From: Gammaproteobacteria bacterium
Lineage (GTDB): Bacteria; Pseudomonadota; Gammaproteobacteria; JACCYU01
Direction: 5' to 3'
NCBI GenBank assembly: GCA_050740315.1
Contig: JBOIDC010000006.1
Span: 2,596 to 66,595 of the forward strand
Length of the DNA: 64,000 nucleotides
Both the position numbers and the translations under genes were made by a program. A model generated the notes under the pieces. The model saw nothing but the letters and a program-made list of their open reading frames with translations. It made no database searches and was not told the origin of the DNA. Positions 10,617 to 29,639 of this stretch are shown here, in pieces (the first letter of the stretch is position 1; each line of letters begins with the position of its first letter).

Positions 10617-11414
10617 GTGGAGATGCGTAAAAAATCAAGATCGATCACTACCGCGCGGAGCTTGTCGACTTGCCTGATTTTCTTCGCTTGCGGGCAGGCG
10701 CTGGCGCAGGATTACGGCGACCCGCTGGCGGCCGAGAACTTCAGCAGCACCCTTTACTTCACGACCGACTATGTGTTTCGTGGCGTATCGTTCACCTCCG
10801 AGGATCCCGCCATCCAGGGCAGCTTCGACTACACGCATCCCAGCGGCGCTTACGCCGGTCTGTGGGGATCCAACTGGGACGGCTTCGGCACGGAGAGTGA
10901 GCTCGAGATCGATTATTACCTGGGTTACGCCAACACGATCGGCGACGTGGGTTACGACCTGACCGCGTTGTATTACACCTTCCCCGGCGCCGAAGACGAT
11001 GGCTTCGAGCTGGATTATTTCGAGGCACACGCGGGCCTGAGCTACGCCATCGAGCCCCTGCCTTTTACTCCGACCGTGGGCGTGGGCTATAACTATTCGC
11101 CCGACTACAACGGCGAGGATGGCGACAGCCACTACGTCAATGGAGCAGTCGACTTGGCGTTGCCGGTAGGGTTCGGTCTGGGATTCGGAGTCGGGAATCT
11201 GAACGTAGCCGGCGGCGCACTTTCCGCCTTTCAGGGCGGTTTTTCTTATACCCACTATTACGCCAGCCTCTCCAAGAGCATCCATGGTTTCGACTTCAAT
11301 CTGACCTATCACGACACAACCAGTCAATGCGAAGACGAGTATGGCGGCCCTATCTTGTTGGACAGGAGTGTCTGCACGCCCGGGGCGGTCTTCACGCTGT
11401 CTCGCACATTCTGA
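10617..11414 (+). CDS. TIGR02001/Gcw_chp-like outer-membrane beta-barrel protein
   Basis: Signal peptide (LIFFACGQALAQD). Tyr/Gly-rich alternating beta-strand pattern with C-terminal ...AVFTLSRTF. A paralog at 25507-26289 shares the same N- and C-termini. Confidence 0.65.
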   Translation: MEMRKKSRSITTARSLSTCLIFFACGQALAQDYGDPLAAENFSSTLYFTTDYVFRGVSFTSEDPAIQGSFDYTHPSGAYAGLWGSNWDGFGTESELEIDYYLGYANTIGDVGYDLTALYYTFPGAEDDGFELDYFEAHAGLSYAIEPLPFTPTVGVGYNYSPDYNGEDGDSHYVNGAVDLALPVGFGLGFGVGNLNVAGGALSAFQGGFSYTHYYASLSKSIHGFDFNLTYHDTTSQCEDEYGGPILLDRSVCTPGAVFTLSRTF

Positions 11415-11544
11415 GGAAAGGGCGCCGCGTAGAGGCTCCACCAGCCCGGGCAGGGTTATGGATCGGTTCGCGAGCTTGCATCGAATGGACTTCACCGATG
11501 GTGCGGTTCACGCGCTGCCTCATGTCCGCCGTAGCTAATTAATC

Positions 11545-12073
11545 CGCTACGGCATAGGTCCATCTGAAATAGTCACCCTCTCTTTCGCCATATCCCAGGC
11601 GACATCGAAAACGCCCGCTCGAACGCCCGCGCGAACGCGGCCTCCGATTCGTAACCCACATCCGCCGCGGTCTGCGCGACCGACCGATGAGCCTCGCGCA
11701 GGCGTTGTGCGGCCACCTGCATGCGCCAAGTCGTCAGGTATTTCATCGGCGGTACGCCGACCAGCGCGGTGAAACGGTCCGCGAAGGCCGAGCGCGACAG
11801 AAAGACCTCGCGCGCCAGGGTCTCTGTTGTCCACGCACGAGCGAGCTCGGCGTGCAGCAAAGCCAGGGCACGGCCGACCACAGGGTCGCGCAAGCCGGCG
11901 AGCCAGCCTACGGTCTGCGGGCAGCGTCTCGACATAGTGCCGCACGGCTTCGACGAACAACAGTTCCGAGAGCTTGGCCAACGCGATGGCGGAGCCAGCG
12001 CGAGTGGCGGCAAGTTCCCCCGCGGCGTAACGGAACGAGCTGGCAACCCACTCGCGTGCGGGCTTGCCATTTA
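11545..12073 (-). pseudogene. truncated, frameshifted copy of the 3' half of the AraC gene at 26628-27581
   Basis: About 94-95% nucleotide identity to 26608-27133. A 2-bp deletion (cagcct--acggtc vs cagcctgtacggtc) shifts the frame. No N-terminal cupin half. Confidence 0.75.
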
Positions 12074-12547
12074 GTAGTACGTCAGTTTACGGGCGAATCA
12101 GAGATATACAGTACGCTGTCCCATACGGCGTGGAATTTATCCATCGGGAGCATGAGCTTCCCACCATAGAAAAACTTACTTTGGCAAAGTTGCGCGCCTT
12201 CAAGATGCGCGGCGAATGGATTCGATGCTGTCCTGAAACAGAAGAATATATGTCCTACGCCCGCGCGCACGGATACCGTCCTGCTTTGCTTGACTTCTGG
12301 AGGCCGGGGCTTCCTGCCGCCGGTCCTACTTGCTGATAATAGTTCAGCCTTTTAGACAACTTGGAACTCCTGAACGAGGACCACTGAAGGCATGGCTGAC
12401 AATAAGCAAGAGCGCCATCGATGGTGTCCGCCCCGAGCTTCAAGATGATTCCCGAACTGCCGAGGCACGTTAGGCGGGTTTGTTGTGACCGTGGAAGAGA
12501 TTGAAAGCGCGCGCGGGCCGTATCCATCGCAAGCGCACACCGGGCGG

Positions 12548-12835
12548 CTATCGATGCACACCATCAATGTGTACGGTACAGGCACCGCACTGGGCGATGC
12601 CGCAGCCGAACTTGGTGCCCATCAGGTCAAGGTCCTCACGCAATACCTGTTGATGGTCTTCAGCTACACCCTCCCCGTTGTCATACATCACGCTGAGTAC
12701 GTACTGCGCGTTCCTATTTCCCTGTTCCGCGGCCTCGTGGTACCAGTAGACTGCCCGTTGATTGTCTTCGGGCACGCCCTTACCTCGCTTTGCGAAAATA
12801 GCCGCAGATACGACCGCTAGGGGCCTTGTCACCAA
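12548..12835 (-). pseudogene. gene debris: Sel1-repeat fragment fused to a [2Fe-2S] IorA/XdhA-like N-terminal fragment
   Basis: [38 protein letters not shown] (Sel1) followed by [22 protein letters not shown] (2Fe-2S ferredoxin motif of molybdo-hydroxylase small subunits). Lower GC, no context. Confidence 0.45.
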
Positions 12836-13383
12836 GGGCGCTTACGGCCCTCAGTATCATGAGTTTCGGGTCCTCATTTCTCATGTCTAGTCTCGGCGGG
12901 CGGATCGCAAGCCCCGCCGGTGTCAGTCGCAGAACCCAGGCGGTCTGTAGCACACCACCCTCGTAAATGGGGGTAGGCGAGCTATACTTTCCTATAGGGC
13001 TCTATGTAGCGATGCAAGGGACCCCGGATGACCGCTATTCCGACGGGTGGTCCGTGAGATGCCTAGTGGCACAGACCGCTATGCGCATGTTGTCGACCGG
13101 AGCGCTCCGCCAGGAAGCGCCGGAACGGGCGCGACTTCGATCCCGAAGCCGCATGGAGGACAGGCGCCGGGATCACATCAACGACACGGAAAACTGCTTA
13201 TGAAGCCGGGGCGCCACGGCAGCGGAAGCAACACAATCAACCGTTCTATCGGCCGCGGAGCGCCTCGCCCTGAAGCAGTTGGAGGCGATCATGGCACCAC
13301 GAAACCAACTATATGGTAACGGGAGCAATACTGAAGCGCATTTCGAGCGCTCATCCCCAACCATCCCTAAGAGGGGTTCTTCA

Positions 13384-15522
13384 GTGACAGCCGGCACGGC
13401 ACGGCCGGCACTGGCAATTGCATGCGCACTGGCGCTCGGCATCGGAACGTTGTCGAGCAGTAAGGCCGATGCCGTAAGCTACGACGATCTGCTCAACGCC
13501 GAAGGCAACACCTCCGAGTGGCTGCAGTACAGCCGCACCTATCACGGTCATCGCTACGTCCGATTGAATCAGATCACGCCAGAGAACGTGCACGAGCTGC
13601 GTCCGGTGTGGATCTTTCCGACCGGCGGGGAGAACCGCGGTCTGGAAGCCACGCCCCTGGTCCACGATGGCGTGATCTACATGTCGGCCGACGAGTCGCG
13701 CGTATTCGCCATCGACGCGCGCACCGGCATGATGAAGTGGCGGTACGATCCGAAGGTTGCCAGGGGGGCCGAGCGGGTCTATTGCTGCGGATCCCAAAAC
13801 CGGGGTGTGGCACTGCTCGGTGACCTGGTCTATGTCGGCACCATGGACGCACGTCTCATCGCTCTCAACAAGGACTCCGGCGAGCCCGTCTGGGATTCCA
13901 CCGTCATCGACTGGCAGCAAGGCTACAGCATCACGGGCGCTCCCTTGGTGGTGAAGGACATGGTGCTCATCGGCGTTGCCGGCGGCGAGTTCGGCATCCG
14001 GGGCTTTGTGAAGGCCTTCGATGCCAGGACCGGCAAAGCGCGCTGGACTGCCTACACCATACCGGGGCCAGGCGAACCGGGTAACGAGACATGGCCGGGC
14101 GATACCTGGAAGCACGGCGGTGCACCCACGTGGACCACCGGGGCCTATGACCCGGCGCTGAACCTCGTGTACTGGAACACGGGCAACGCCGCCCCGTGGA
14201 ACTGCCGGGTACGTAAGGGCGACAACAAATGGGCAGCCTCGACCATCGCCATCGGCGCCGGCAGCGGCAAGATCAAATGGGGCTTCCAGTACACGCCCTG
14301 GGACTGCTGGGACTACGACGCCGTCAGCACGCCGGTACTCGCCGACCTGAAGATCGACGGCAAGGCGCGCAAGGTGCTGCTGCACCACGACAAGAACGGC
14401 TTCTTCTATGTTATCGATCGCACCAACGGCCAGTTCATCTACGGCGAGCCCATAGTGCCGGGGATCAATTGGGCGAAGGGCCTGGATCCCAAGACCGGCC
14501 GGCCGATCGTGAACGAGGAGTTCATCGCGCAGTCAGGCGGACGGGAGGTCGCACCTATCATCCCGAGCCTCGAGGGCGCCATCGACTGGCAGCCGCTGGC
14601 CTACAACCCGGAGACCGGGGTTGTCTACTTCATGTCCAACACTTGGGCCATGGGCTACAAGTTCTGGGAGGAGGACACCTTCAAGCCACCCACCCAGGGT
14701 GAGTGGTATCTCGGTGCCGACTACCAGCAGTACATCCGACCCGATGTGCCGGTCGGTGCGTTCGTCGCCTTCGACGTCGCCAACCGCAAGGAACTGTGGC
14801 GTTTGACGAACGAGCAGCCCTTCTGGGCCGGCACGCTGGCGACCTCGAGCGGGCTGATCTTTACCGGTGACAACCACGGCTACGCGCTGGCGCTGGATGC
14901 GAAGAGCGGCAAGGTGCTGTGGAAGTTCCCGACCGGGTCTCCCATCGCGGGCAGCCCGGTCACCTTCCAGCTGGACGGCACGCAATACGTCCTATTCCCG
15001 TCGGGAATGGCCGGTGACCTGACTTTCTATTACACCAACCCGAAGGTCGGCAATCTGATCGCGTTTGCCCTCGCTGGAGGGGCGCGCAAGCTGCCCGAAG
15101 GGCCCTCCAACCTGGAGGTGATTCCGGGTGCGCTGCCGAAGGTGGGCGAGCCGGGCGCTACCTTGGGCGGCCGGGTGATCGAAGGCTACGGTTACCCGCC
15201 GCAGCCTGAGCGCGAGCCTATAAAAGAGGATGAGGAGCAGGCGGGCGAGGAGGAGGAGGACCCGGAGAGCAAGCTCGAGAATTACTTCGGCGATGAGGAG
15301 GCCATCAGGGCCGGCGAGAGCACCTATCGTCAGCGTTGCTTCGGCTGCCACTTCCGCGCCGGCGGACGGGGGCCCAACATCTTCGCGACCAGGCTGACCG
15401 CGGAGGAGTTCTTCAGTGTGGTCATGGAGGGAGGCGCCGGCATGCCGCCGTGGAAGGGGACGCTATCGGAGCACGAAGTCTGGGAGCTGTACGCCTTGGC
15501 GAAGTCTCGGGATCGGTTGTAG
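13384..15522 (+). CDS. PQQ-dependent quinohemoprotein alcohol/sugar dehydrogenase (8-blade propeller + C-terminal cytochrome c)
   Basis: Vicinal Cys-Cys (YCCGSQNRG). W-rich propeller repeats. WDCWDYDAVS carries a D-Y-D after the catalytic Asp. CFGCH heme motif at 15337-15351. Glu-rich linker EPIKEDEEQAGEEEEDPESK. Start set at GTG 13384 (RBS AGAGGGG, Sec-like signal ...LSSSKA|DA); alternative ATG 13291 with GGAGG. Confidence 0.8.
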   Translation: MTAGTARPALAIACALALGIGTLSSSKADAVSYDDLLNAEGNTSEWLQYSRTYHGHRYVRLNQITPENVHELRPVWIFPTGGENRGLEATPLVHDGVIYMSADESRVFAIDARTGMMKWRYDPKVARGAERVYCCGSQNRGVALLGDLVYVGTMDARLIALNKDSGEPVWDSTVIDWQQGYSITGAPLVVKDMVLIGVAGGEFGIRGFVKAFDARTGKARWTAYTIPGPGEPGNETWPGDTWKHGGAPTWTTGAYDPALNLVYWNTGNAAPWNCRVRKGDNKWAASTIAIGAGSGKIKWGFQYTPWDCWDYDAVSTPVLADLKIDGKARKVLLHHDKNGFFYVIDRTNGQFIYGEPIVPGINWAKGLDPKTGRPIVNEEFIAQSGGREVAPIIPSLEGAIDWQPLAYNPETGVVYFMSNTWAMGYKFWEEDTFKPPTQGEWYLGADYQQYIRPDVPVGAFVAFDVANRKELWRLTNEQPFWAGTLATSSGLIFTGDNHGYALALDAKSGKVLWKFPTGSPIAGSPVTFQLDGTQYVLFPSGMAGDLTFYYTNPKVGNLIAFALAGGARKLPEGPSNLEVIPGALPKVGEPGATLGGRVIEGYGYPPQPEREPIKEDEEQAGEEEEDPESKLENYFGDEEAIRAGESTYRQRCFGCHFRAGGRGPNIFATRLTAEEFFSVVMEGGAGMPPWKGTLSEHEVWELYALAKSRDRL

Positions 15523-15694
15523 GTAGTACCTGAGGCCGGCATCGGCCAAACGCCGCAGACCGTCGAGATACTCTGGGCCGCGGTATGCAGAGTATTCAGC
15601 GACCCGGCGGTAGAGCGGCGACCCTTGGGATCCGACCTCCCCGGAGTATGTACGGCTCATGAAACGTATCAGTCCGCTTGTCCAGGAGACGCCT

Positions 15695-16591
15695 ATGTCT
15701 ACGAAAGCCCGGTTACTGTCGGTGTCGGCTGTGTTGTTTGCCAGTCTTGCCCTCGCCGGCATCTCGGCGGTGGCGACCGCCGCTGATATCAGAATCGTCT
15801 CCGATTTTGGGACCGTCCCGGAGTCATGCGTGATCGCCCCGGATGGAAAGGTGTATGTGTCCGTGACCAACGAGTACGACAAGTACGGCGACGGGTACGT
15901 GGGCGTGGTTGAAGGGAACACGCTCAAGCCGGTCGCCAAGGGACTGAACGATCCGCACGGGCTCGACCTCTGGAAGGGCGCACTCTACAGCGCGGACAAT
16001 CGTGGTCAGGTCTGGAAGGTCGATCTGAACGGTACCGTCACCAAGGTCGCCGACTCCGGAATGTTCCCGCGAAAGGTCACGAACTTCAACGACATCGAGA
16101 TCGACGAGCGCAACGGCGACATTTACGTCTCTGACAGCGGCGACTGGGAGGGTCGCGGAGGCGTGATCTTCAAGATTACGCAGGATGGCGACGTGAGCGT
16201 GGTGTTCAGCGACGAGAAGGTCGGCGGTTGGCAGCTCATCAGCCCGAACGGCCTGCTCTTCGAGGACCGCGACAACCTGCTGGTCCTCGACTGGACCACC
16301 GGCAACTTGCACCGCCTCAATTTGAAGACCAAGTCCTTCGTCAAGCTCAACGGCGGTTGGGGGCCGGGCGACGGCCTGGCAAGGGGCCCTGATGGCGAGC
16401 TCTATGTGTCGGCCTACTACGAGGGCGTGTATGTGCTCGACAAGCCGGACAGCGAGGATCGAAGCAAGGTCTACACCCTCAAGGCTCTGGGTGTCGCCTC
16501 GACAGCCGACATCAATGTGAGCACGGATGGCAAGCTGCTCTGCGTTCCGGACTTCGACGGCCATAAAGTCGCGCTGGTGCCGCTGAAGTAG
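15695..16591 (+). CDS. secreted SMP-30/gluconolactonase/LRE-like (NHL-type) beta-propeller protein
   Basis: Signal peptide [32 protein letters not shown] with AGGAGA RBS. Repeated DG.lYVsd/PNGL blades typical of SGL lactonases. Confidence 0.6.
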
Positions 16592-16691
16592 AGGCGAGGG
16601 ACGGCTCTCCGACGGTCGTCGGACCCGGTCCGCTTGCTGGCGCAGTCGCGGCGCGCGGATGCAGGAGGTGCCCAGTCGCACGGAGCGAAGC

Positions 16692-17942
16692 ATGCAGTCC
16701 TATTCGATCTGGAGCCTGCTGCGTAACGCCCTGCGTCACCATGAGCATTGGCCGCGCGCCTGGCGCAGCCCCGATCCCCGGCGCGCCTATGATGTCGTGA
16801 TTGTGGGCGGCGGCGGCCATGGACTGGCGACGGCCTTCTATCTCGCCACGGAGCACGGCATCCGCAACGTCGCCGTGCTAGAGAAGGGTTGGATCGGGCT
16901 GGGGAATACCGGCCGCAACACCACCATCGTCCGCTCCAACTATTTGAGCGATGAAGCGGCCCACCTTTATGAACATAGCTTGAAGCTGTGGGAGGATTTG
17001 AGCCGGGCGCTCAATTTCAACGTCATGTTCAGCCAGCGGGGCGTTTACAACCTGGCGCACACGCTGCAGGAGCTGCGGGACATCAACCGACGGGTAAACG
17101 CCAACCGCCTGAACGGCATCGACGGCGAGGTCGTGGACGCCGTCGAGCTAAAGCGCCGCATCCCCATCCTCGACACTTCGCCCCACGTGCGCTATCCGGT
17201 GCTCGGCGCCTCCTTCCAGCCGCGTGGCGGGGTGGCCCGCCACGACGCCGTGGCGTGGGGCTTCGCTCGCGCCGCCGACGCCCGGGGCGTGGACATTATT
17301 CAGAACTGCGAGGTTACCGCCATCCGGCGTGACGGTGACCGGGTCATGGGTGTGGATACGACGCGGGGCCATATTCGGGCGGCCAAGGTGGCAGTCGTCG
17401 TCGCCGGGCATGCCAGCGTCCTAGCCTCGATGGTGGGGCTGCGTCTGCCCATCGAGAGTCGCCCGCTCCAGGCCCTGGTGTCCGAGCCCCTGAAACCGGT
17501 GCTGCACAGCGTGGTGATGTCTAACGCGGTCCATGGCTACCTCAGCCAGTCCGATAAGGGCGAGCTGGTCATCGGCGGGGGCACCGACGCCTATACCGGC
17601 TACGGGCAGCGCGGCAGCTTCGACACCATCGAATCCACGATAGCGGCCATCAAGGCGCTGTTCCCCTGCTTCAGCCGCGTGCGCATGCTGCGTCACTGGG
17701 GCGGCATCGTGGATGTGTGCCCGGACGCGTGCCCCATCATTGGCAAGACGCAGGTCAAGGGACTGTACTTCAACTGCGGCTGGGGCACGGGCGGATTCAA
17801 GGCCACCCCGGGCTCCGGCTGGGTCTTCGCACACACCATTGCCCGCGACGAGCCCCATCCGCTGAATGCCGCGTTCTCCCTGGAGCGCTTCACCAGCGGA
17901 CGCTTGATCGACGAGCACGGGGCCGCCGGCGTGGCGCATTGA
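16692..17942 (+). CDS. soxB: sarcosine oxidase beta subunit
   Basis: FAD dinucleotide fold [19 protein letters not shown]. Overall SoxB pattern. First gene of the soxB-D-A-G gene order. Confidence 0.8.
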
Positions 17943-18052
17943 ATGGGAAGCGAATCGACCAACCGGGCAGCCACATCCGCCACCAGATACCGCGGCCGCA
18001 GCGCGCCTTGTGGCGATGGCCGGCTGGCGCAGCCTGGCGCGAAGGATCGGCG

Positions 18053-18334
18053 GTGCTGCTGATCGAATGTCCGTGGTGCGGTCTTCGAGACCAGAGTGAA
18101 TTCAGCTGGGGCGGTGAGGCCGGCAACTACTATCCCCGCGATCCGGAGGCACTGAGCGATTTGGAGTGGGCCGACTACCTCTTCATGCGGCGTAACATAA
18201 AGGGAATCCAACGGGAGCAGTGGGTCCACATTCACGGCTGCCGGCGCTGGTTCATCGTCGAGCGTGACACCGTGAGTTACCGGATCACGGGTTCCTTCGC
18301 CCCCGCCGCGGCGCCACGGGAGGAGGAGTTGTGA
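18053..18334 (+). CDS. soxD: sarcosine oxidase delta subunit
   Basis: LLIECPWCGLRDQSEFSWGGEA is the SoxD Zn-finger N-terminus. GTG start with AAGGA RBS. Stop overlaps the soxA GTG start. Confidence 0.7.
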   Translation: MLLIECPWCGLRDQSEFSWGGEAGNYYPRDPEALSDLEWADYLFMRRNIKGIQREQWVHIHGCRRWFIVERDTVSYRITGSFAPAAAPREEEL

Positions 18335-21300
18335 CCCAGTGCCGGCGGCTGGCGCGCGGCGGCCGTATCGACCGCGGCCGACCCGTGACGTTCGCCGTCA
18401 ATGGCAGGCGCTACGAGGGCTATGCCGGGGACACGCTGGCCTCAGCGCTGCTGGCCAACGGCCAGATGCTGGTCGCTCGCAGCATCAAGTACCACCGTCC
18501 GCGCGGCATCGTCGCCGCGGGCGCCGAAGAGCCCAATGCCGTCCTGCAGGTGGACCAGGGGCCCGACACCCTGCCGGATCAGAAGGCCACTCAGGTCGAG
18601 CTCTACCAGGGGCTCACGGCGCGCAGCGTGAACGGCTGGCCGAGCGTCCGGTTCGATCTGCTCGCGCTCAATGACCGCGTCATTGGGGGCCTGCTGCCCG
18701 CCGGGTTCTACTACAAGACGTTTATGCAACCCGCCCGGCTGTGGCGGTTTTACGAACGCTTCATCCGCCGGGCGGCAGGGCTGGGCTACGCCCCCGAGGC
18801 ACCGGATCCGGACCGCTATGATCACATGAACGCTCACTGTGACGTGCTGGTGGTCGGCGGTGGGCCGGCCGGTTTGGCAGCAGCGCTGGCCGCTGGCCGC
18901 ACCGGCGCCCGCGTCCTATTGGCGGACGAGCAGAGCGAACCGGGCGGCGGCCTGCTTGCCAGCCGCGCGGCGATCGACGGCCGCCCGGCCATGGAGTGGG
19001 TGGCGGCCACCGTGGCCGAGCTGCGGTCGATGGCGGAGATGAGGCTTCTGACGCGGGCAACCGTGTGCGGCTACTACGACCACAACTTCCTCACGATACT
19101 GGAGCGCCGCACGGATCATCTTCCACCCGCCGAGCGGCGGCAGCGGGGCGCGCGGCAGCGCCTGTGGCGGGTGCGCGCCCGACAGGTCGTGCTCGCGTCG
19201 GGTGCCATCGAGCAGCCCCTGGTGTTCGGCAACAACGACCGCCCGGGGATCATGCTTGCTTCGGCCGTCTCCACCTACCTGATTCGCTACGCTGTGGCGC
19301 CTGGGGCGCGCGCCATGGTCTTCACCAACAACAACAGCGCCTATCGCACCGCTCTGGACCTGGTCGATGTCGGTGTGTCGGTGGCCGCGTTGGTGGATGC
19401 ACGTGCCGGTTCTCAGGGAGCCCTGGCCGCTCAGGCGCGCCGGCACGGCATACGTATCCTGACCGGCGCGGTCGTCGTCGAGGCGCTGGGCGCCGGACGG
19501 TTGTCCGGCGTCCGGGTCCGGGCGCTCGAGGACGGCACGCCTTCGGGCCGTGCCGAGCGTATCGATGCCGACCTGCTCGCAGTCTCCGGCGGCTGGGCAC
19601 CAGCCATCCACCTCCTCGCGCAGTCCGGCGGCGGCCTGCAATGGGATCCGGAGCGCGCGTGCTTCGTGCCGCGCACCGCGGCCCAGCCCTGCCGCTGGGC
19701 CGGCGCCGCGGGCGGGAGCTTCCAGCTGGGTGCCGCACTGGCCGAGGGACTGGCAGCCGGGGCGGCAGCGGCCCGCGACGCCGGCTTCGGCGACGGCCGA
19801 ATGTCCGCGACACCGCATGCCGAAGACGCCGGTAGCGGGGCTCTGCAACCCCTGTGGCCCGTCCCGATGTCCGGACCACCGGAGCGCGGGCCCAGGCAGT
19901 TCGTGGATCTGCAGAACGACACCACCGCAGCCGACATCCTGCTCGCCGCCCGAGAAGGCTACACGGGCATCGAGCACACCAAGCGCTATACCCTCCTCGG
20001 CTACGGGACCGACCAAGGTAAGCTCGGCAACATCGGCGGCATGGCCATCCTGGCGAACACGTTGCGCCAGGACATGTCGACCACTGGGACCACCACTTTC
20101 CGCCCGCCGTACACTCCCATGACCTTCGGTGCGGTCGCAGGCTCCAGGGCAGGGCCCTTCTTCGATCCCCTGCGCAAGACCGCGCTGCACGGGTGGCACC
20201 AGGCCCGGGGCGCGCGCTTCGAGGTCGTGGGCCAGTGGCACCGTCCCTGGTATTACCCGCAGCCGGGCGAGCCCATGGAACATGCGGTGCGGCGCGAGTG
20301 CCGGGCCGTGCGCGGCGGGGTCGGCATCCTGGATGCCTCGACCCTCGGCAAGATCGACCTTCAGGGCCGCGACACAGTGACGCTGCTGAACCGCGTCTAC
20401 ATCAACGAATGGCGTAATCTCCAGGTCGGAGGCTGCCGCTACGGCGTGATGCTGAACGAGAACGGCATGGTCATGGACGACGGCGTGACAGCCCGCCTCG
20501 CCGAGCATCACTACCTGATGAGCACCACCAGCGCGGGCGCGGCGCGGGTGCTCGCCTGGCTGGAGTTCTGGCTGCAGCGCGAATGGTCGGACTTAGAAGT
20601 CTATCTCACCTCAGTCAGCGAGCACTGGGCGACCCTGTCGCTGGCCGGGCCGGAGAGCCGCCGCGTCCTGGCCGAGGTTTGCCGCGACTGCGACCTCTCG
20701 AGCGAGGCATTCCCCCACATGGCGTGGCGAGAGGGCATCGTGGCGGGTGTTACCGCACGCATCTTTCGCGTGAGCTTCAGTGGCGAGCTCAGCTTCGAGG
20801 TCAATGTGCAGGCCAACGAGGCGCGCCACGTCTGGGACGCGCTGATCGCGGCCGGGGAGTCCCGCGCCATCACCGCATATGGGACCCAGGCAATGGAGAT
20901 CCTGCGAACCGAGAAGGGCTACATCATCGTCGGCCAGGACACCGACGGCGCGGTCACACCCCTGGATCTCGGCATGGGGAGGCTGATCAAGCGCGACGGC
21001 GACTTCCTCGGACGCCGCTCCCTGGCACGACCCGAGTGTACCCGTGCCGACAGGCGCCAGCTCGTGGGGCTAGTGAGCCAGGGCCCGCGCACGGTGCTCC
21101 CCGAGGGCGCGCAGCTCGTGGAAAAGCCCTCGGTCCACACTCCCATACCCATGGTTGGGCATGTGACCTCGAGCTGTTTCAGCCCGGCCCTGGGGCGGGG
21201 TATAGCGCTGGCTCTGGTGAAGGGCGGGCGCCAGCGCAGCGGGCAGACCTTGCATGCCCCGCTGGCCGATGGTCGGGTGCTGGCCGCCACCGTCACGGAC

Positions 21301-21342
21301 CCGGTGTTCTACGACCGGGAGGGGGCGCGCCAGCGTGGCTGA
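18331..21342 (+). CDS. soxA: sarcosine oxidase alpha subunit
   Basis: 1003 aa. N-terminal VTFAVNGRRYEGYAGDTLASALLANG. NAD/FAD folds VLVVGGGPAGLAAAL. C-terminal GcvT-like folate-binding domain. Confidence 0.8.
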   Translation: MTQCRRLARGGRIDRGRPVTFAVNGRRYEGYAGDTLASALLANGQMLVARSIKYHRPRGIVAAGAEEPNAVLQVDQGPDTLPDQKATQVELYQGLTARSVNGWPSVRFDLLALNDRVIGGLLPAGFYYKTFMQPARLWRFYERFIRRAAGLGYAPEAPDPDRYDHMNAHCDVLVVGGGPAGLAAALAAGRTGARVLLADEQSEPGGGLLASRAAIDGRPAMEWVAATVAELRSMAEMRLLTRATVCGYYDHNFLTILERRTDHLPPAERRQRGARQRLWRVRARQVVLASGAIEQPLVFGNNDRPGIMLASAVSTYLIRYAVAPGARAMVFTNNNSAYRTALDLVDVGVSVAALVDARAGSQGALAAQARRHGIRILTGAVVVEALGAGRLSGVRVRALEDGTPSGRAERIDADLLAVSGGWAPAIHLLAQSGGGLQWDPERACFVPRTAAQPCRWAGAAGGSFQLGAALAEGLAAGAAAARDAGFGDGRMSATPHAEDAGSGALQPLWPVPMSGPPERGPRQFVDLQNDTTAADILLAAREGYTGIEHTKRYTLLGYGTDQGKLGNIGGMAILANTLRQDMSTTGTTTFRPPYTPMTFGAVAGSRAGPFFDPLRKTALHGWHQARGARFEVVGQWHRPWYYPQPGEPMEHAVRRECRAVRGGVGILDASTLGKIDLQGRDTVTLLNRVYINEWRNLQVGGCRYGVMLNENGMVMDDGVTARLAEHHYLMSTTSAGAARVLAWLEFWLQREWSDLEVYLTSVSEHWATLSLAGPESRRVLAEVCRDCDLSSEAFPHMAWREGIVAGVTARIFRVSFSGELSFEVNVQANEARHVWDALIAAGESRAITAYGTQAMEILRTEKGYIIVGQDTDGAVTPLDLGMGRLIKRDGDFLGRRSLARPECTRADRRQLVGLVSQGPRTVLPEGAQLVEKPSVHTPIPMVGHVTSSCFSPALGRGIALALVKGGRQRSGQTLHAPLADGRVLAATVTDPVFYDREGARQRG

Positions 21343-21967
21343 GGCCGTAGGTCTGGAGAGCCCGCTCGCGGAGCTGCCCGCCGCCCGCGAGGGCATGGGC
21401 ACACCGGACCAGGCCGGGTTGCTGCTCATGGAGCGCCCATTCCTGGGCTACGTGAATCTGCGCGGCGCAATGCACTCTGCAGGCTTGCGCGACAAGGTCG
21501 AAAGTGTCCTGGCGCTGTCCCTGCCGCTCCGGCCGAACACCGTGACGCTGGAGAGTCAGCGGTTGGCTTGCTGGCTCGGTCCGGACGAATGGCTGGTGAT
21601 CACCGCGCCCGGCGAGCAAGGTCGCGTGCTCGAAGCGCTCCGCGCCGCCCTCACCGGCCAGCATGCCGCGGTCAGCGATGTCAGCGGCGGTCAGACGCTG
21701 ATCGAGAGCGCCGGCCGCCATGCGCGGGACGTGCTCGCCAAAGGCTGTACCCTCGACCTGCGCCCGCGGGCATTCCCGCCGGGCCGATGTGCGCAGACCC
21801 TGGTCGCTCAGTGCCCGGTGTTGATCCTGCGTGCCGGTAGCCGTGACGCCTTCGGTGTGGTGGTACGACGGAGCTTTGCGGACTACCTGTGGCGATGGCT
21901 CGTGGACGCGGCGCAGGAGTACGGTCTGGCGGTGTTGCCACCGCAGAGCCAGCCCGGCTCGGACTAG
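21335..21967 (+). CDS. soxG: sarcosine oxidase gamma subunit
   Basis: About 210-aa ORF overlapping the soxA stop. Position and size fit SoxG. Start (GTG 21335 vs ATG 21398) uncertain. Confidence 0.6.
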   Translation: MAEAVGLESPLAELPAAREGMGTPDQAGLLLMERPFLGYVNLRGAMHSAGLRDKVESVLALSLPLRPNTVTLESQRLACWLGPDEWLVITAPGEQGRVLEALRAALTGQHAAVSDVSGGQTLIESAGRHARDVLAKGCTLDLRPRAFPPGRCAQTLVAQCPVLILRAGSRDAFGVVVRRSFADYLWRWLVDAAQEYGLAVLPPQSQPGSD

Positions 21968-21987
21968 AACCGTTTCGAAATGCAGAG

Positions 21988-22014
21988 TCCCCTTTCCCAG
22001 AAGGGGATCTTTGC
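21988..22014 (+). terminator. hairpin tcccctt-tcccag-aagggga followed by tcttt, downstream of soxG
   Basis: 7-bp perfect stem, 6-nt loop, U-rich tail; read directly. Confidence 0.4.
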
Positions 22015-22036
22015 ATAAATAGTTGCTTATGATTTG

Positions 22037-22079
22037 ATTGGTTTGATACGAGTGGACAACAAACTGGATCAAACCCAAT
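22037..22079. repeat. imperfect inverted repeat attggtttgat ... atcaaacccaat upstream of the recombinase remnant
   Basis: 11/12 complementary arms separated by 20 bp. Confidence 0.3.
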
Positions 22080-22239
22080 TCGGCGGCTTTGAGGCCGCAA
22101 GCGGCCGGGCAAGGCAACTGGCGTCAAGCCCACGGAGTAGTCTGGCGGATTTAATGGTAGCCTGACTATAAGTCGCCATCTTTCGTTCTGCGTGTCTCTG
22201 AAGCCGTTGCCTTATGCTAGCAAGCAGTCGATTTTGAAC

Positions 22240-22575
22240 GAGGGCTGCTGCACGTGAGCCGCCTCAAGAACGGCATGGCTTCTACGCGCGCCCGTTGAGG
22301 GATCCGGAGATGCGCGCCTTGCGCCGCAAGCGCGAGTACCCCGAGGAGGAACTATCTCTTCGTCACTGAGCGCAAGCGGCCGCTCACCCTTTCAACAGTC
22401 CGCAAATTCATCGCCCGCTCTGGGAGAGCGGGCGGGCCTTGGTTTTCCCAGTGCATCCGCACGGGCTGCGACATAGCACGGGATACAAGCTCGCCAATGA
22501 TCGCTAGGACACCTGGGCCATTCAGCACTACTTGGGACACAGAAACATCCGGCACACCACGCGCTAGACGAGTGC
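22240..22575 (+). pseudogene. degraded small tyrosine recombinase (FimB/FimE-like) remnant
   Basis: Pieces in three frames: LHVSRLKNGMAST..., FVTERKRPLTLSTVRKFIARSGRAGG, VHPHGLRHSTGYKLANDR*DTWAIQHYLGHRNIRHTTR. The HxLRH/LGH..I..T catalytic region is present but with an in-frame stop and frameshifts. Confidence 0.65.
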
Positions 22576-22606
22576 AAGACCGCTCAGGCCGGCACGCCTG
22601 CAGAAG

Positions 22607-22849
22607 TCACTGCGGGTGTTGCTCTAGCCTCTCGCGTGCGAGCGCGGCCTCTGGGTCGTGGGGGTGTCTAACGAGCCATTCCTCGAGGTCGCGCCGAGCG
22701 CGGGGCCCGTAGAGGTCAAAGCGCGCCGCCCCGCGCCTTAATGGCAGCTTGCGGCGCTGACGGGCGAGCGTCCTCACCAGACTCCAGATGGCTACACCCC
22801 AAAAAAGGATCAGCGTCGCGGCGAAGATCATCCACGATACGGTGGTCAT
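22607..22849 (-). CDS. small single-TM protein, putative NSS-transporter small subunit (MetS-like)
   Basis: MTTVSWMIFAATLILFWGVAIWSLVRTLARQRRK..., 80 aa, ATGA-coupled immediately downstream of the NSS gene. Confidence 0.5.
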   Translation of the reverse strand: MTTVSWMIFAATLILFWGVAIWSLVRTLARQRRKLPLRRGAARFDLYGPRARRDLEEWLVRHPHDPEAALARERLEQHPQ

Positions 22850-24273
22850 GTGCCTTTCCTTCTGGAATCCATGGCGCGGCCGAGAAACCAGGCAACGAGG
22901 AGCAGAGCGCACACGAACGCAAGCCCGCCTACCACCCGTGGGGCCGTCTCGCCTCGCAGCGCATCGAGCGTAAACCAGGCGAGCAACAAGGCGATCACCA
23001 CCGGAATCAGGTAGCGTATAAACAGATCCCACCAGCGGCCGATGTAGATGTCGGCGCCGTAGTTGACTTCGAGCACACGCGCCTTAGTCGCTCCGAAGCG
23101 CCATCCAAGCACGAGCACGGTCAGAAGCGTCGCAAGTGGCAACACCCAGCTGCCGAAGATGAAATCCATCAACGCATTGAACGAGAGATCCAGCGCGCTC
23201 GGTAGTCCTAGCAACCATATTGCACCCATCACCCACACCACGGCCCGCCGCCGTGAGATCCCGGTCTCCTCCTTGAGGGCTGCGACCGGCACCTCGGTGA
23301 TGGCGAAACCTGAGGTGAGGGCAGCGAATAGAAAACCGATGAAGAATAGCAGGCACCAGAAATAGCCGCCGGCCATCTCGGGAAAGATCTTGGGTAGCGC
23401 GAGAAACACCAGCTCCGGCCCGGCCGCCGGATCTGCGCCGAAGGCGAACACCGTCGGCAACACCATCAATGCGGCCAGGAGCGACATGCTGGAATCGCCG
23501 ACGGCGGTGAAGATGCCCGCGCCGAGCGGAATGTCCTCATCTGCCCGGAGGTAGCTGCCAAGGGTGAGCGCAATGCCCCAGCCGAGACCCGTGGAGAACA
23601 GCGCCTGGCCCAGTGCTGCAACCCAGAGCCCCGGCTTAAGCAACTGCACCCAATCGGGAGTGAACAGAAACGCCAGCCCCGCCTCACCGCCCGGCAGGGT
23701 CAACCCGCGCGCGGCCGCGATGGTCAGCGCCAGTATGAAACCAGGCACCATCAGCAGTGCAGCGCGCTCTATCCCCCTGACGATGCCGAAGTAAAGCGGC
23801 ACAGCGCAAACGAGCACCGCGAGCGCATGGCTGCCCACCTTAAGCCAAGCGCTCACCCTGAAGCCCTGCCACGCCGACTCGGGATCGAAGCCGGCGTCGA
23901 AAAAGGTACCCGCCACGGCATGGGCGAAGTAATAAATGACCCAGCCGATGATCGGGAAGTAGTAGGTCATGAGTCCGAAGGTGCCGAGTGCCACGAGCAC
24001 ACCGGGCGCGGACCGACCACCCATGCGCCGAAACGCCCCCACCGTCGCGGAGCGGCTGAAGCGGCCCATCGCAGTCTCCCCCATTAGCCCGGGCACCGCG
24101 ATCAGATACACCATGATGATGTAGGCGAACAGGAATGCGCCGCCACCGTTGCTGCCCGCGAGATACGGAAAGCGCCAGATATTGCCGAGCCCCACCATGG
24201 CGCCGAGCATGGCGAACAGAAAGCCCACTCGCGAGACCCACACCTCACGCGGCGGCTGTGTGTGCCTTGTCAT
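22846..24273 (-). CDS. neurotransmitter:sodium symporter (NSS/SNF) family transporter
   Basis: GNIWRFPYLAGSNGGGAFLFAYII is the NSS signature. 475 aa, about 11-12 TM segments. Confidence 0.8.
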   Translation of the reverse strand: MTRHTQPPREVWVSRVGFLFAMLGAMVGLGNIWRFPYLAGSNGGGAFLFAYIIMVYLIAVPGLMGETAMGRFSRSATVGAFRRMGGRSAPGVLVALGTFGLMTYYFPIIGWVIYYFAHAVAGTFFDAGFDPESAWQGFRVSAWLKVGSHALAVLVCAVPLYFGIVRGIERAALLMVPGFILALTIAAARGLTLPGGEAGLAFLFTPDWVQLLKPGLWVAALGQALFSTGLGWGIALTLGSYLRADEDIPLGAGIFTAVGDSSMSLLAALMVLPTVFAFGADPAAGPELVFLALPKIFPEMAGGYFWCLLFFIGFLFAALTSGFAITEVPVAALKEETGISRRRAVVWVMGAIWLLGLPSALDLSFNALMDFIFGSWVLPLATLLTVLVLGWRFGATKARVLEVNYGADIYIGRWWDLFIRYLIPVVIALLLAWFTLDALRGETAPRVVGGLAFVCALLLVAWFLGRAMDSRRKGT

Positions 24274-24431
24274 GACATCCTATTAGCGCCCCCACACGCT
24301 TTGGATGCAAGCGACCCATTACCGCTCGCGCGGCGTCGGCGCGACGCGCGGGATTCGGCTTTAGCTTTACACATGCCAAAAGATCGGGACAATGACGATC
24401 GAACCGATACTTCGACCCTAGATATCTGCGG

Positions 24432-25217
24432 ATGTCCGCGCGGGCTTCGGCCACGGGTGTCGTAGGTCCTGAGAAAGATTTCCTCGTATTTGATCGTTCG
24501 CACAGCCGGCCCGACGAATACGTTGTCCATCCAACGCCCCCGGCTGCCCGCAACCGGAGCAACGAGCGGCTTGCTATTAGCCGCGCCTATGGCGCCGAGG
24601 TGCTCCAGGTCGGCCACTTCCACGTGGATGCCGCCCTAGAGAAGGCCAGAGAGTTCGGCCGGAGGCCGGGCTACTTCTGCCCTTCGCAGTTCGAGTCGGA
24701 GTGGAACGTCGAGGAGAACCGCGAGGTCCTGGGCCCCGAGATCCTGGCCCAGCTCCCAGGGGTTCCGGACGCTCTGGTGATGGGCGTTGGCACGGGCGGC
24801 ACCCTCGTAGGTGTCGGGCAGGCCTTCCGCGAAGTCAATCCTGAAGTAAAGCTCTTCGCCATAGAGCCTTCTGAGTCATCGACCATCTTATGCGGGGAGG
24901 TGGCCGAGCACCTCATCGAGGGCATCGCGGACGGCTTTGTGCCCGGCATCTTCGAGCGCCACCGCCAGCTAGTTGACATGACGCTCGCGGTTCGTTCGGA
25001 GGAGGCCGTGGAGAGCATGCGCCGCCTGGCCAAGCAGTACGGGCTCTTCGTCGGGCCGAGCAGCGGTGCGAACCTGATCGTCGCCAAAAAGATCATGGTG
25101 GCCTACCCCGAGCTGAAAACGATAGTCACCCTCTTCTGCGACGAAGGCGAGAAATACATCCAGGAGCACTTCGCAAAGACTGATGAAGTGCGGTTGAACG
25201 CCGAGAAGTTCGCCTGA
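24432..25217 (+). pseudogene. 5'-truncated cysteine synthase/CysK-like PLP enzyme
   Basis: Matches the CysK middle and C-terminal regions (GTGGTLVGVGQ glycine loop, ...GPSSGANLIVA). Lacks about 90 N-terminal residues including the PLP-lysine region. In-frame stop at 24393. Confidence 0.55.
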
Positions 25218-25506
25218 TTTTCTAATCTCCGGAACACACGTCCCCGTGACATCCAAGTAGCGATTGGCGACATTTTGTTTTCAGGCGCATCGCCGACGAA
25301 AGGCGAACTAGAAAAAGCCGCGTAAGTTTACGCGCTGCTGTGGTTATGACTCGAGCCGCACAACGGCGTCCTGTTCCATGGAAACTCGACTAGGCCTGTG
25401 TTAGCTCATGAAGATGAGCTTACCCGTGATTACAGTGGATAATCGGTGGCAAGCTCGCGGACCGATGCATACGCTGGCCGGGCCGGTGGAACCCGGCGCC
25501 CTTTTC

Positions 25507-26289
25507 TCAGAATGTACGAGATAGCGTGAAGACAGCCCCTGGAGTGCAGACACTGGTGGTTCCATAGTACGGCGCACCGTACTCGTCCTCACAATCGCTG
25601 CTGGTGTCGTGGTAGGTCAGATCGAAGGTGAAGCTTTGAATGACCTTTGAGACACCTACTTGATAGTGCGTATAAGAAAACCCGTTTGGCCTACCAACAA
25701 GCGCACCAAGCGCGCCGCCCGACACGTCCAAACGCCCAAACCCGAAGCTCAGTCCGATCTCCGCCGGCAGCACCAAATCCAGTGTTCCAAGGACGTAGTT
25801 GCTATCGCCGTCTTGCCCGTTTGTAGTCGGGCGAGTAGTTATAACCCACGCCAACCGTGGGCGTTAGTGGGATGGCTTCGACGGTGTGACTCAACCCCAC
25901 GTGCGCTTCGAAATAGTCTAGTTCGAACCCCGGATCCTGGGCCCCAGGAAAGGTGTAATAGAGCGCTAATCGATAGGGCCTAAGGCGTTTGCGTAACCGC
26001 CGTAGTAATCGATTTCGAACTCGCTTTCGGTGCCGAAGCCATCCCAGTTCGACGCCCAGGCGCCGACATAGGCGCCGCTCGGATGCGCGTAGTCGAAGCT
26101 GCCCTGAACGGCGGGATCCTCGTCCGTGAATGAGACGCCCCGAAAGACATAATCGGTCGTGAAGTAAAGGGTGCTGCTGAAGTTCTCGGCCGCGAAAAAA
26201 CCGCCGTCCTCCTGTGCAAGTGCGAAACCATTTGCTGTAAGCCCGGAAAGCCCAAGGGCAGCTGCAGCTACTCTTCGTGTGATGCTCAT
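25507..26289 (-). pseudogene. frameshifted paralog of the TIGR02001-like OMP gene
   Basis: N-terminal (26289-25966) and C-terminal (25854-25507) pieces align to the 10617-11414 protein. An extra A in gactacAAAcgggcaagac gives DYKRARRR* instead of DYNGQDGDS. A second shift lies near 25960-25985. Confidence 0.7.
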
Positions 26290-26627
26290 GATCCTTTTAC
26301 TCCTCGGGTTTTGATGTCGTTTTCGAGTAGGGAAGACTTACGCACAATCCCCTTAAGACGGCGCACGCCGCCACCGGCGACAGCGATGATGATTCGATAA
26401 CGGAATGGGTCGCCAGCCGAAGACGCACCAACGCACGCTCATAAGTGTCCCGTTCAGGCCTAATCCTCCGTGGCCTTGAAGCGCGTAATCAATTCCTCAA
26501 GCGGATTAATACATTATAGTGCAATCTGCCGCACACAGTAGTCTGATCTGGATCCATTCTCGTAGGCGAGGTTTAGCAGCGGTTCGTTAAATACCGATTT
26601 CCATTCCGTTAGGTCCATCTGAAAGGG

Positions 26628-27581
26628 TCACCCTCTCTTTCGCCATATCCCCGGCGACATCGCAAACTCCCGCTTGAACGCCCGCGCGAACGCGGCCTCC
26701 GATTCGTAACCCACATCCGCTGCGGTCTGCGCGACCGACCGATGAGCCTCGCGCAGGCGTTGTGCGGCCACCTGCATGCGCCAGGTCGTCAGGTATTTCA
26801 TTGGCGGTACGCCGATCAGCGCGGTAAAGCGCTCTGCGAAGGCCGAGCGTGACAGAAAGACCTCACGCGCGAGGGTCTCTGTGGTCCACGCACGCGCGAG
26901 CTCGGCGTGCAGCAAGGCCAAGGCCCGCCCGACCACTGGGTCGCGCAAGCCGGCGAGCCAGCCTGTACGGTCTGCGGGCAGCGTCTCGACGTAGTGTCGC
27001 ACGGCTTCGACGAACAACAGTTCCGAGAGCTTGGCCAGCGCGATGGCGGAGCCAGCGCGCGTGGCGGCGAGTTCCTCCGCGGCGTAACGGAACGAGCTGG
27101 CAACCCACTCGCATGCGGGCTTGCCATTTAGATCAAGGGTCAGCATTGGCGGCAGCGCATCGATCAGCGGATGCTGCCGCGCGTCAGTGCCGACAAAGCC
27201 GCAGACGATGTGAGTCGTTTCTCCACCACCACCATACCGAATGCGCGCCAGACCGCCATCGGGATCAGCCTGTATCAGATGGTCGCCGCTGACAGCCGGC
27301 AGCCCAGTTTCGCTCGCGAGTGTGTGCTCGTCGTTGCGCGGCAGCAGGACGACTGCGCCGCTCTTGAGTTCGATCGGCGGCTCGCCGGCGACTTGCAGGA
27401 GCAGCAGCCGGCCGGCGACAACGTAGTGAAACGCAATCACGCGCGCAGGCTCGGCCATGACCATGCGGCAATCCTCGGGCCCGACTTTGGCGGTAATGCA
27501 CCAAGGCGCAGAAAACTCCGCGTGGAGAAACACGCCGCCGGAGAGTCTGACGACGCGCAAGAGATCAGACAGGGCATCCAT
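26628..27581 (-). CDS. AraC-family transcriptional regulator with N-terminal cupin domain
   Basis: C-terminal AraC HTH (SVAQTAADVGYESEAAFARAFKREFAMSP). N-terminal cupin-like ligand domain. Its 3' half is duplicated at 11545-12073. Confidence 0.75.
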   Translation of the reverse strand: MDALSDLLRVVRLSGGVFLHAEFSAPWCITAKVGPEDCRMVMAEPARVIAFHYVVAGRLLLLQVAGEPPIELKSGAVVLLPRNDEHTLASETGLPAVSGDHLIQADPDGGLARIRYGGGGETTHIVCGFVGTDARQHPLIDALPPMLTLDLNGKPACEWVASSFRYAAEELAATRAGSAIALAKLSELLFVEAVRHYVETLPADRTGWLAGLRDPVVGRALALLHAELARAWTTETLAREVFLSRSAFAERFTALIGVPPMKYLTTWRMQVAAQRLREAHRSVAQTAADVGYESEAAFARAFKREFAMSPGIWRKRG

Positions 27582-27745
27582 GATTTTTGAATCCAAGCTC
27601 CGGCGGATCGAGCAAGTCTTTCGGCGCAATGGTCATTCGCACAATACCTTGAGCGCGCTACAGTCGCACCCAGGTTTGCGGTGCCGATGCCGGCCTAGGC
27701 CACGGTGCTTCGCCTTCATTATCAATCTGCCACCGGAGAAAAGCG

Positions 27746-29128: not shown

Positions 29129-29206
29129 ACGTGTGTGAAAAAAGATCAGCGCGCGACCAGCCCAACAACGTTCAGATTACAAGTGCCAGACGGAGTAAGA
29201 GCGATG

Positions 29207-29620: not shown

Positions 29621-29639
29621 GATAGAAGAATTTCGGAAT

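Follow-up and report, generated by a model that had tools for sequence, protein, structure and literature searches.

Within a 64,000-nt stretch of a gammaproteobacterial genome (contig JBOIDC010000006.1; the window is this whole stretch, and coordinates count from its first letter), the interval 11553-29880 lies between a TorF-family porin gene and etfA and contains the 3' half of an AraC-type regulator gene in two copies, one of them part of an intact gene and the other, AraC', a truncated fragment. We describe the architecture of these direct repeats, their breakpoints, the signature of purifying selection that both copies carry and the ancestral synteny preserved in relatives. Based on these features, we tentatively favor the hypothesis that a segment of about 15 kb entered the AraC gene by single-crossover recombination and left behind an intact hybrid AraC gene and, displaced from it, a 3' fragment. 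From this arrangement we infer a circular intermediate, a crossover as the mechanism and the sequence of events.

The AraC direct repeat and its setting

Comparison of the window with itself revealed only two long repeat pairs, one direct and formed by the AraC sequences, the other inverted and formed by two porin genes (OMP1 and OMP2). The units concerned are the following.

10506-11479, plus strand: OMP1 unit, with a 30-nt conserved upstream motif and, after it, an intact TorF/Gcw_chp porin gene (10623-11414) that is followed by 65 nt of 3' flank
11529-11554, no strand: hairpin (GCCGTAGC, 10 nt, GCTACGGC) that closes the resident OMP1 unit; AraC' begins at the next base
11555-12074, minus strand: AraC' (repeat copy 1), a promoterless AraC 3' half comprising codons 167-333 and 18 nt past the stop, with a 2-bp deletion
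25449-26517, minus strand: OMP2 unit, a complete copy of a porin locus, inverted with respect to OMP1, in which the gene (26289-25507) is preceded by an upstream region of 226 nt and followed by 65 nt of 3' flank
26628-27581, minus strand: full-length AraC gene (Cupin_6 and HTH_18 domains), within a unit (26555-27581) that includes the ancestral 3' flank; repeat copy 2 is 26610-27131

The AraC repeat aligns 11555-12074 with 26610-27131 over 522 columns, with 31 mismatches and one 2-bp indel (93.7% identity; 791 bits in blastn), and brackets 14.5 kb. The original prediction had placed the two segments at 11545-12073 and 26608-27133 with 94-95% identity, and the self-alignment that it proposed as a check, for more than 90% identity over about 500 bp, bears out the repeat with slightly different edges. 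It had also described copy 1 as lacking the cupin half and carrying a 2-bp deletion, and this is what we find: copy 2 scores 140.6 bits for Cupin_6 and 75.3 bits for HTH_18, copy 1 matches HTH_18 alone, and its deletion faces positions 26965-26966 of copy 2. The deletion links an open alternative frame to the helix-turn-helix (HTH) frame and so gives rise to HTH-only open reading frames (ORFs) of 120 and 165 amino acids, each with the whole HTH_18 domain; an ATG at 11935 arose through a change specific to copy 1. Upstream of AraC' no sigma-70-like promoter was found, and no ribosome-binding site is evident by eye.

The substitutions between the copies carry much of the argument. Of the 29 coding differences 22 are synonymous and seven non-synonymous (two more are non-coding), giving non-synonymous (dN) and synonymous (dS) divergences of 0.019 and 0.187 and a dN/dS of about 0.10 by the Nei-Gojobori method. 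When the changes are polarised against the relatives L056, L057 and L054, copy 1 has 17 derived substitutions as well as the 2-bp deletion and copy 2 has 14 derived substitutions, and in the HTH part the copy-1-derived changes comprise 10 synonymous and three non-synonymous ones. Since the differences are mostly synonymous and evenly split between the lineages, AraC' appears to stem from a functional allele that was cut recently, and we ruled out a copy decaying in place. The pattern suggests that both AraC lineages were under purifying selection at similar rates and functional until recently, that the truncation and the frameshift of AraC' are recent, and that AraC' is probably the relic of a once-functional, 6%-diverged allele. 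On the simplest reading, one of the two copies would have come from a sister lineage about 6% diverged. A full-length donor allele of the copy-1 type was not found: the best database relatives are at most 92% identical and the cluster members all belong to another subtype. The copies share exact matches of up to 62 nt, a length sufficient for RecA-dependent exchange, and 18 identical nt at the 5' edge of the repeat.

Related AraC loci were examined in species-representative genomes (49 loci, screened by tblastn) and at five further places through their called genes. The closest AraC relative with available DNA (L056, 92% amino acid identity) matches the 3' flank of copy 2 as far as 26555, 55 nt past the repeat edge, which argues that copy 2 lies in its native setting. 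Divergent from the gene stands a partner encoding a 460-amino-acid, tetratricopeptide repeat (TPR)-like protein, and the pairing of AraC with this partner is retained in eleven related loci (L001-L005, L008, L009, L012, L021, L056 and L057). The conserved partner of AraC thus appears to be the divergent gene at 27746-29128 and not a porin gene. At the other repeat, the relative L063 corresponds to window positions 9526-11552 at 93% and 86% identity, its GGDEF-EAL gene being contiguous with OMP1, and diverges immediately after the hairpin at 11529-11554, which folds as an 8-bp stem without a U tract and is found in L063 too. The breakpoints seen in relatives are independent of one another, at 11553-11555 in L063, at 26555 in L056 and at 26515-26519 in L059, L060, L064 and L066. 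Both edges of AraC' therefore read as true breakpoints, apparently novel junctions with respect to the close relatives L063 and L056.

The AraC partner belongs to a highly conserved family with at least 8000 homologues, many at 74-87% identity. It has no sequence match in Pfam, NCBIfam or the PDB, and a fold search gave generic TPR matches only, with TM scores of at most 0.44. Its AlphaFold model (pLDDT 84.5) is an all-helical, TPR-like superhelix, and the family has many invariant His, Trp and Asp residues.

The inverted porin genes

OMP1 scores 154 bits against a cut-off of 47.15 for TIGR02001 and belongs to the TorF/Gcw_chp putative porin family (TIGR02001, PF09694). In OMP2 a loss of 10 nt near 25966 and a gain of 1 nt near 25822 leave about 145 nt out of frame, so that it is a pseudogene; its N-terminal fragment still scores 76 bits against a Pfam cut-off of 24, and the gene is disrupted. 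The genes had been called intact and frameshifted, respectively, and both calls hold. Inverted similarity pairs 10728-11479 with 26193-25449 (74.5% identity, E = 7e-136) and includes a 41-nt exact match, and the copies differ by a dN of 0.21 and a dS of 1.35 (Nei-Gojobori). The two proteins had been predicted to share their termini; the C-termini are indeed identical (VCTPGAVFTLSRTF) and the N-termini differ. The 3' flanks are 83% identical, closer to each other than the gene bodies are.

Several observations bear on which porin gene is resident. The sensor kinase, response regulator and PAS-GGDEF-EAL genes before OMP1 stand in the order that is also found ahead of the porin gene of L060, L064 and L066, and L063 is 93% identical to this block at the nucleotide level. 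The conserved neighbor of the porin gene thus appears to be the upstream PAS-GGDEF-EAL gene, and OMP1 appears to occupy the ancestral position. The homology of OMP2 to relatives begins at 26515-26519, at the conserved 30-nt motif that lies about 14 nt past the GGDEF-EAL stop in L059, L060 and L064, and its nearest allele (P0215, 84-86% amino acid identity) occupies the canonical site of a relative in JGI sample 3300041965. These features suggest that OMP2 is a displaced copy of the whole porin locus.

OMP1-type alleles (P0131, P0214 and L063) form a separate lineage that is mosaic with OMP2-type sequence; an OMP1-type porin of one relative combines an OMP1-like signal peptide and C-terminus with an OMP2-like middle. 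Furthermore, the 3' flank of OMP2 resembles the OMP1 type and not that of OMP2's own nearest relative. From this mosaicism and the type of the OMP2 flank it seems likely that porin alleles recombine at the locus.

The 30-nt motif (ATAAGGTATTAACTCGTATGAGGAATTGAT) consists of two similar half-sites and opens the porin upstream region at 10506-10535 and 26488-26517, as well as in L059, L060 and L063; it is a candidate regulator-binding site, perhaps for the adjacent NarL-type response regulator. In the L063 relative the EAL gene upstream of the OMP1-type porin gene is split into two ORFs.

Contents and flanks of the interval

The remaining features of the interval and its flanks are these.

5412-10433, plus strand: left block; HisKA_3 sensor kinase, NarL-type response regulator and PAS-GGDEF-EAL protein (Pfam domains)
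12075-13290, no strand: spacer with fused fragments of a 2Fe-2S-binding gene and a Sel1-repeat gene at 12548-12835, minus strand (six-frame Pfam scan)
13291-16591, plus strand: quinohaemoprotein pyrroloquinoline quinone (PQQ) alcohol-dehydrogenase-family gene and beta-propeller (SSL/NHL-like) gene, both intact
16659-21967, plus strand: soxBDAG (heterotetrameric sarcosine oxidase), intact, with DAO, SoxD, GCV_T/SO_alpha_A3 and SoxG domains
about 22188-22570, plus strand: remnant of a small plasmid-type (FimB/E-like) tyrosine recombinase gene, frameshifted, with Phage_integrase in two frames
22607-24273, minus strand: NSS-family sodium symporter gene and DUF8026 gene, both intact
24432-25217, plus strand: CysK-like gene without about 90 N-terminal residues; PALP profile matched from position 87 on
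27746-29620, plus strand: divergent AraC partner gene (27746-29128; no family match), then a DsrE-like gene
29658-29819, plus strand: fragment of a short-chain dehydrogenase/reductase (SDR) gene, its last 40 codons; matches SDR profile positions 212-248 of 249 only
29881-37099, minus strand: right block; etfA, 5'-truncated etfB, frameshifted 483-amino-acid-family gene, Fe-S/CCG oxidoreductase, and flavoprotein with OYE and Pyr_redox domains

The right block, recognized by its Pfam domains, is syntenic with L060, L064 and the JGI contig w3Waj4o7, and we take its Fe-S/CCG oxidoreductase and OYE/Pyr_redox flavoprotein to be DgcB/DgcA-like from our own reading of their domains. L060 (105 kb) and w3Waj4o7 carry, on one strand, the genes for the sensor kinase, the response regulator, the GGDEF-EAL protein and the porin and, on the other strand, those for an S-methyltransferase, (RibBA), EtfA, EtfB, the 483-amino-acid protein, the Fe-S/CCG oxidoreductase and the OYE/Pyr_redox flavoprotein. 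In these two relatives the porin gene and etfA lie 0.3-2.3 kb apart, as against 18.3 kb (11553-29880) in the window. This canonical synteny argues that the whole interval is an addition and a rearranged insertion zone, in line with the original prediction of a rearranged acquisition hot-spot rather than a simple operon neighborhood. No S-methyltransferase remnant was found in the window. L064 represents a third arrangement, in which the etf block lies upstream of the kinase gene and mutS follows the porin gene. The sequence after the porin gene is different in all five relatives examined, L059 and L063 differing again, and since this content varies among relatives the 3' side of the porin gene would be a recurrent synteny breakpoint. 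The tails of L063 and L059 and the junction spacers matched none of the fetched loci.

The PQQ dehydrogenase, the propeller protein, soxBDAG and the NSS transporter had been called intact, and all four have full domain coverage, which is the sense in which we use the word. The recombinase remnant and the truncated CysK-like gene of the same prediction are likewise present. The dehydrogenase scores 608 bits for TIGR03075 and has a cytochrome c domain. The four adjacent sox genes, in the order B-D-A-G, match the beta (DAO), delta (SoxD), alpha (Fer2_4/SO_alpha_A3/GCV_T) and gamma (SoxG) subunits, all above cut-offs, and are in all probability heterotetrameric sarcosine oxidase genes. Their G+C content at third codon positions (GC3) is 0.77-0.85, like that of neighboring core genes, although their bulk G+C content is high (67-72%); we thus rejected foreign composition as evidence of distant transfer.

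The recombinase remnant scores 77 bits for PRK09871, far under the cut-off of 222 bits, and its best matches are models of 'tyrosine-type DNA invertase'. Its intact homologues (at most 56% identity) are on plasmids, and in Thauera one adjoins a toxin-antitoxin pair and a ParA-like ATPase gene. A further recombinase was sought in the spacer 12075-13290, where a six-frame Pfam scan and a tblastn search of an 86-amino-acid ORF against plasmids gave only the Fer2 and Sel1 fragments. These form a 95-amino-acid ORF (12548-12835, minus strand) in which part of a Sel1-repeat gene is joined to part of a (2Fe-2S)-binding subunit gene; this second part resembles plasmid genes from Azospirillum and others, at 84-94% identity over 47-87 nt. 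A plasmid origin of the whole region was rejected, as a megablast search of PLSDB with positions 9000-30000 returned nothing beyond distant matches to sox genes (72-74% identity) and short ones to 2Fe-2S genes. In all, the zone and its edge hold seven remnants, namely AraC', the Fer2/Sel1 fragments, the recombinase, the CysK-like gene, OMP2, the SDR fragment, and etfB with the frameshifted 483-amino-acid gene. Six-frame scans revealed no transposase domain, and there are no terminal inverted repeats other than the porin genes, which speaks against a composite transposon bounded by insertion sequences (IS).

Near the right edge, a deletion of ~550 nt near 31510 (within 30894-32550) took 59 codons from the start of etfB and ~113 codons from the end of the upstream 483-amino-acid-family gene, and the electron transfer flavoprotein (ETF) partner of the dgc-like genes is probably non-functional. 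A GcvT-like aminomethyltransferase gene (37149-38264) adjoins the dgcA-like flavoprotein gene and fits a methylated-amine demethylation locus. At the left, window positions 1-5109 hold the right end of an integrated element that abuts a tRNA-Ala gene (5034-5109, minus strand), with a P4-type integrase gene (3634-4899) and an int-alpA RNA motif (2598-2667); the matching contig of a metagenome-assembled genome (MAG) carries ParE toxin/HTH genes, a DnaG-type zinc ribbon and DUF3631. The mosaic is not a genomic island linked to this tRNA gene, as the tRNA-Ala and integrase genes face an island on the left and the kinase-to-porin block separates them from the mosaic. Farther to the right, a KdpB-like E1-E2 ATPase ORF (45391-47436) overlaps a long ORF on the same strand (46815-48344) by about 620 nt, which may mean that a frameshift has occurred or that an ORF is spurious; kdpD and kdpE occupy 39386-42797. 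Genes for a type I restriction-modification system, hsdM and hsdS, occupy 61008-63718, and hsdS has a G+C content of 0.49 and a GC3 of 0.50, much below the rest of the window.

Origin of the segment and comparison with known systems

In the scheme that we tentatively prefer, the interval 11553-29880 would be an accretion zone within a conserved methylated-amine catabolic locus, with the TorF-family porin gene on one side and the etfAB/dgc-like genes on the other. A segment that measures about 15.06 kb (12075-27131, equivalently 11555-26609) would have entered the 3' half of a resident AraC gene by a single, Campbell-type crossover, and the incoming DNA would probably have been a plasmid-derived circle with its own 6%-diverged AraC 3' half. 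Its cargo would have comprised the genes for the PQQ dehydrogenase, the propeller protein, SoxBDAG, the NSS transporter and a small tyrosine recombinase, together with the CysK fragment and an old porin allele (OMP2). One product of the crossover would be an intact hybrid AraC gene, still paired with its divergent target gene, and the other the AraC 3' fragment, displaced to a place next to OMP1, devoid of a promoter and since then altered by a 2-bp deletion; the recombinase gene, OMP2 and other genes would have been degraded by deletions at a later time. We favor this scheme because a single crossover with a circle carrying the 3' half of a gene gives a direct repeat of that half and a full-length copy that keeps its native partner. 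The likeness of the recombinase remnant to small plasmid-borne enzymes argues for homologous co-integration of plasmid-derived DNA over the action of a dedicated integrase. Removal of the segment in silico leaves OMP1, the hairpin and a convergent full-length AraC gene, which is a sensible arrangement.

A number of observations weigh against this scheme. No empty site consisting of OMP1, the hairpin and full-length AraC was found among the retrievable relatives, L063 having the hairpin and then unrelated sequence, and no step in similarity to L056 and L057 is seen at 27131 in the full-length AraC gene. Pfam and NCBIfam searches of the ORFs and six-frame scans of the spacers found no phage, integrative and conjugative element (ICE) or plasmid replication or transfer genes in the segment, which holds only catabolic and transport genes and fragments. 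Neither att-like short repeats beyond the AraC homology nor Rfam elements nor IS ends were found in the mosaic, and an att core was not found either. The recombinase remnant is small and resolvase/invertase-like, without an arm-binding domain, and lies 4.5 and 10 kb from the segment ends. Additionally, GC3 does not set the cargo apart from core genes, a result in favor of exchange among related lineages; the window's own contig is the sole link across 18977-21981; and insertion leaves unexplained why each AraC copy stands beside a porin gene of the same family.

Finally, the mostly synonymous, evenly shared differences fit equally well a history of deletion, which we regard as possible but on balance doubtful. 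Here the genome would once have held two complete modules of AraC and its partner, through an old duplication or import from a sister lineage, or one copy would have been replaced by a sister allele through homologous recombination, and a deletion would then have taken one AraC 5' half together with the partner gene, so that AraC' came to stand beside unrelated junk sequence. Deletion scars of the same polarity abound in the zone (the 5'-truncated CysK-like, SDR and etfB genes, and the fused Fer2/Sel1 fragments), and the lack of an integrase at the segment ends and the failure to find an att core speak for this history as well. However, tblastn found no trace of a second partner gene or cupin half in the window, and two functional regulator copies would have had to persist in one genome over a dS of about 0.19, unless a further import is assumed. 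Furthermore, deletion leaves unaccounted for the direct orientation of the repeats and their bracketing of recombinase-bearing cargo.

The original prediction held that a single OMP-AraC module was duplicated and one copy inverted, giving matched flanks around the cargo. The opposite orientation on which it built is real, as the porin genes are inverted and the AraC copies direct, and each AraC copy does lie 75-340 nt from a porin gene of the same subfamily; the similarity of the OMP1 and OMP2 3' flanks, above that of the gene bodies, also speaks for such a module. A common origin of the two pairs by duplication and inversion is nevertheless improbable given the sevenfold gap in synonymous divergence (dS of 0.19 for AraC and 1.35 for the porin genes), the independent breakpoints in relatives and the lack of continuous homology across the junctions, the OMP-AraC spacers (11480-11554 and 26518-26609) being unrelated. 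OMP2, moreover, has the full canonical porin upstream region, starting from about 14 nt past the position of the GGDEF-EAL stop in relatives, and its nearest allele sits at the canonical position in a relative. Related genomes had been expected to show an ancestral OMP-AraC arrangement, and no porin gene was found beside AraC in the 49 loci screened by tblastn or in the five places with called genes, bar one cut, unreadable gene of 179 amino acids located 490 nt downstream of AraC on JGI contig Tf3OhIWB.

It is less probable still that the window is a chimera of two co-occurring strains or loci, in which case the bracketing and the 15-kb spacing would be unreal. A second assembly (GCA_975322995.1) matches window positions 623-18976 at 100% identity on one contig and 21982-37018 on another with two single-nucleotide polymorphisms (SNPs), neither at a repeat edge. 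It spans every repeat edge, including the two ends of AraC' and each edge of OMP2 and AraC, so the repeat junctions are independently confirmed. The same assembly breaks at 18976 and 21982, leaving the join of soxA, soxG and the recombinase remnant to the window's contig, and the second break falls on a module boundary, both points in favor of a chimera. However, soxA is one uninterrupted ORF of 1003 codons across 18976, and a switch between strains would not yield a 520-bp gene fragment with two novel junctions. The contigs of the second assembly stop inside soxA and restart 15 nt after soxG. One SNP is at 22856; at the other (32585, T in the window and A in the second assembly), the window keeps the stop of the Fe-S/CCG gene, giving 717 amino acids as in relatives, and the MAG contig reads through to 965.

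We give the least credence to a functional explanation, in which AraC' is a working HTH-only regulator of the MarA/SoxS type, or the inverted porin genes and the FimB/E-like recombinase are a decayed inversion system for porin switching, or both: the complete HTH_18 domains of the two ORFs, the copy-1-specific ATG, the synonymous excess in the HTH part, the invertase models matched by the recombinase remnant and the inverted 41-nt match of the porin genes can be cited in its favor, but AraC' has no promoter-like site or evident ribosome-binding site upstream, its synonymous excess is accounted for by the history of the fragment before truncation, the invertase-model score is far under its cut-off with intact homologues in plasmid maintenance regions, and the porin genes are convergent across 14 kb of intervening operons, one being a pseudogene, without any short inversion sites found.

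Campbell-type integration, in which a circular DNA enters through a cloned or captured piece of the chromosome, is exemplified by plasmid co-integration, the formation of Hfr (high frequency of recombination) strains and insertion-duplication mutagenesis. As in those cases, direct repeats of a shared fragment surround the insert, and a fragment from the 3' end of a gene gives one complete and one 5'-truncated gene. They differ from our case in that no plasmid backbone is present here besides the recombinase remnant, and the mechanism is read from the architecture alone. The locus also resembles a plasticity zone, since the conserved kinase/regulator/GGDEF-EAL/porin and etfAB/dgc-like flanks enclose variable, remnant-rich content that differs in every relative, whereas no tRNA gene, integrase or IS element bounds the zone here.

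The closest parallel is the 15.1-kb element e14, which is flanked by icd and by icdC, a C-terminal pseudogene, the copies differing at synonymous sites (PMC13626634). Both cases have a segment of about 15 kb, an intact gene with its 3' end inside the insert and a promoterless C-terminal pseudogene copy at the other end; in both, the copies differ mainly at synonymous sites, and a recombination event joining the two copies would remove the segment, with a chimeric gene as the result (PMC13626634). In contrast to our segment, e14 is a defective prophage with a working integrase and excisionase and a defined att site; here a decayed, small plasmid-type recombinase lies well away from the ends, phage genes are absent, the repeat measures 520 bp, the target is a regulator gene, and no empty site or excision product was observed. 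By this analogy, a plasmid-derived, non-phage catabolic cassette could use the AraC 3' half as its attachment or homology site and bring a replacement 3' half so that the regulator survives, an e14/icd-like restoration of the gene by a metabolic island, which we consider unlikely; on this reading AraC', with its HTH part only, might in addition be expressed and act like MarA as a regulator without a sensor.

We regard the locus as a well-resolved case of ordinary genome plasticity, in which a regulator gene bears an e14/icd-like scar, and not as a new kind of system, and the current understanding of genome plasticity is unchanged. Two features of the analysis apply to such loci: evenly shared, synonymous-rich differences separate the relic of a functional allele of another lineage from a copy decaying in place, and a comparison of dS between neighboring repeats tells whether they stem from one event. 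For this organism, a dimethylglycine/ETF locus appears to have acquired sarcosine oxidase and a quinoprotein dehydrogenase, with recombination into a regulator gene as the probable route, and parts of the older pathway (etfB and the methyltransferase gene) were lost. If the reading as an insertion scar is true, the 15-kb block would still be deletable by recombination between the repeats, and the trait may be polymorphic in the population.

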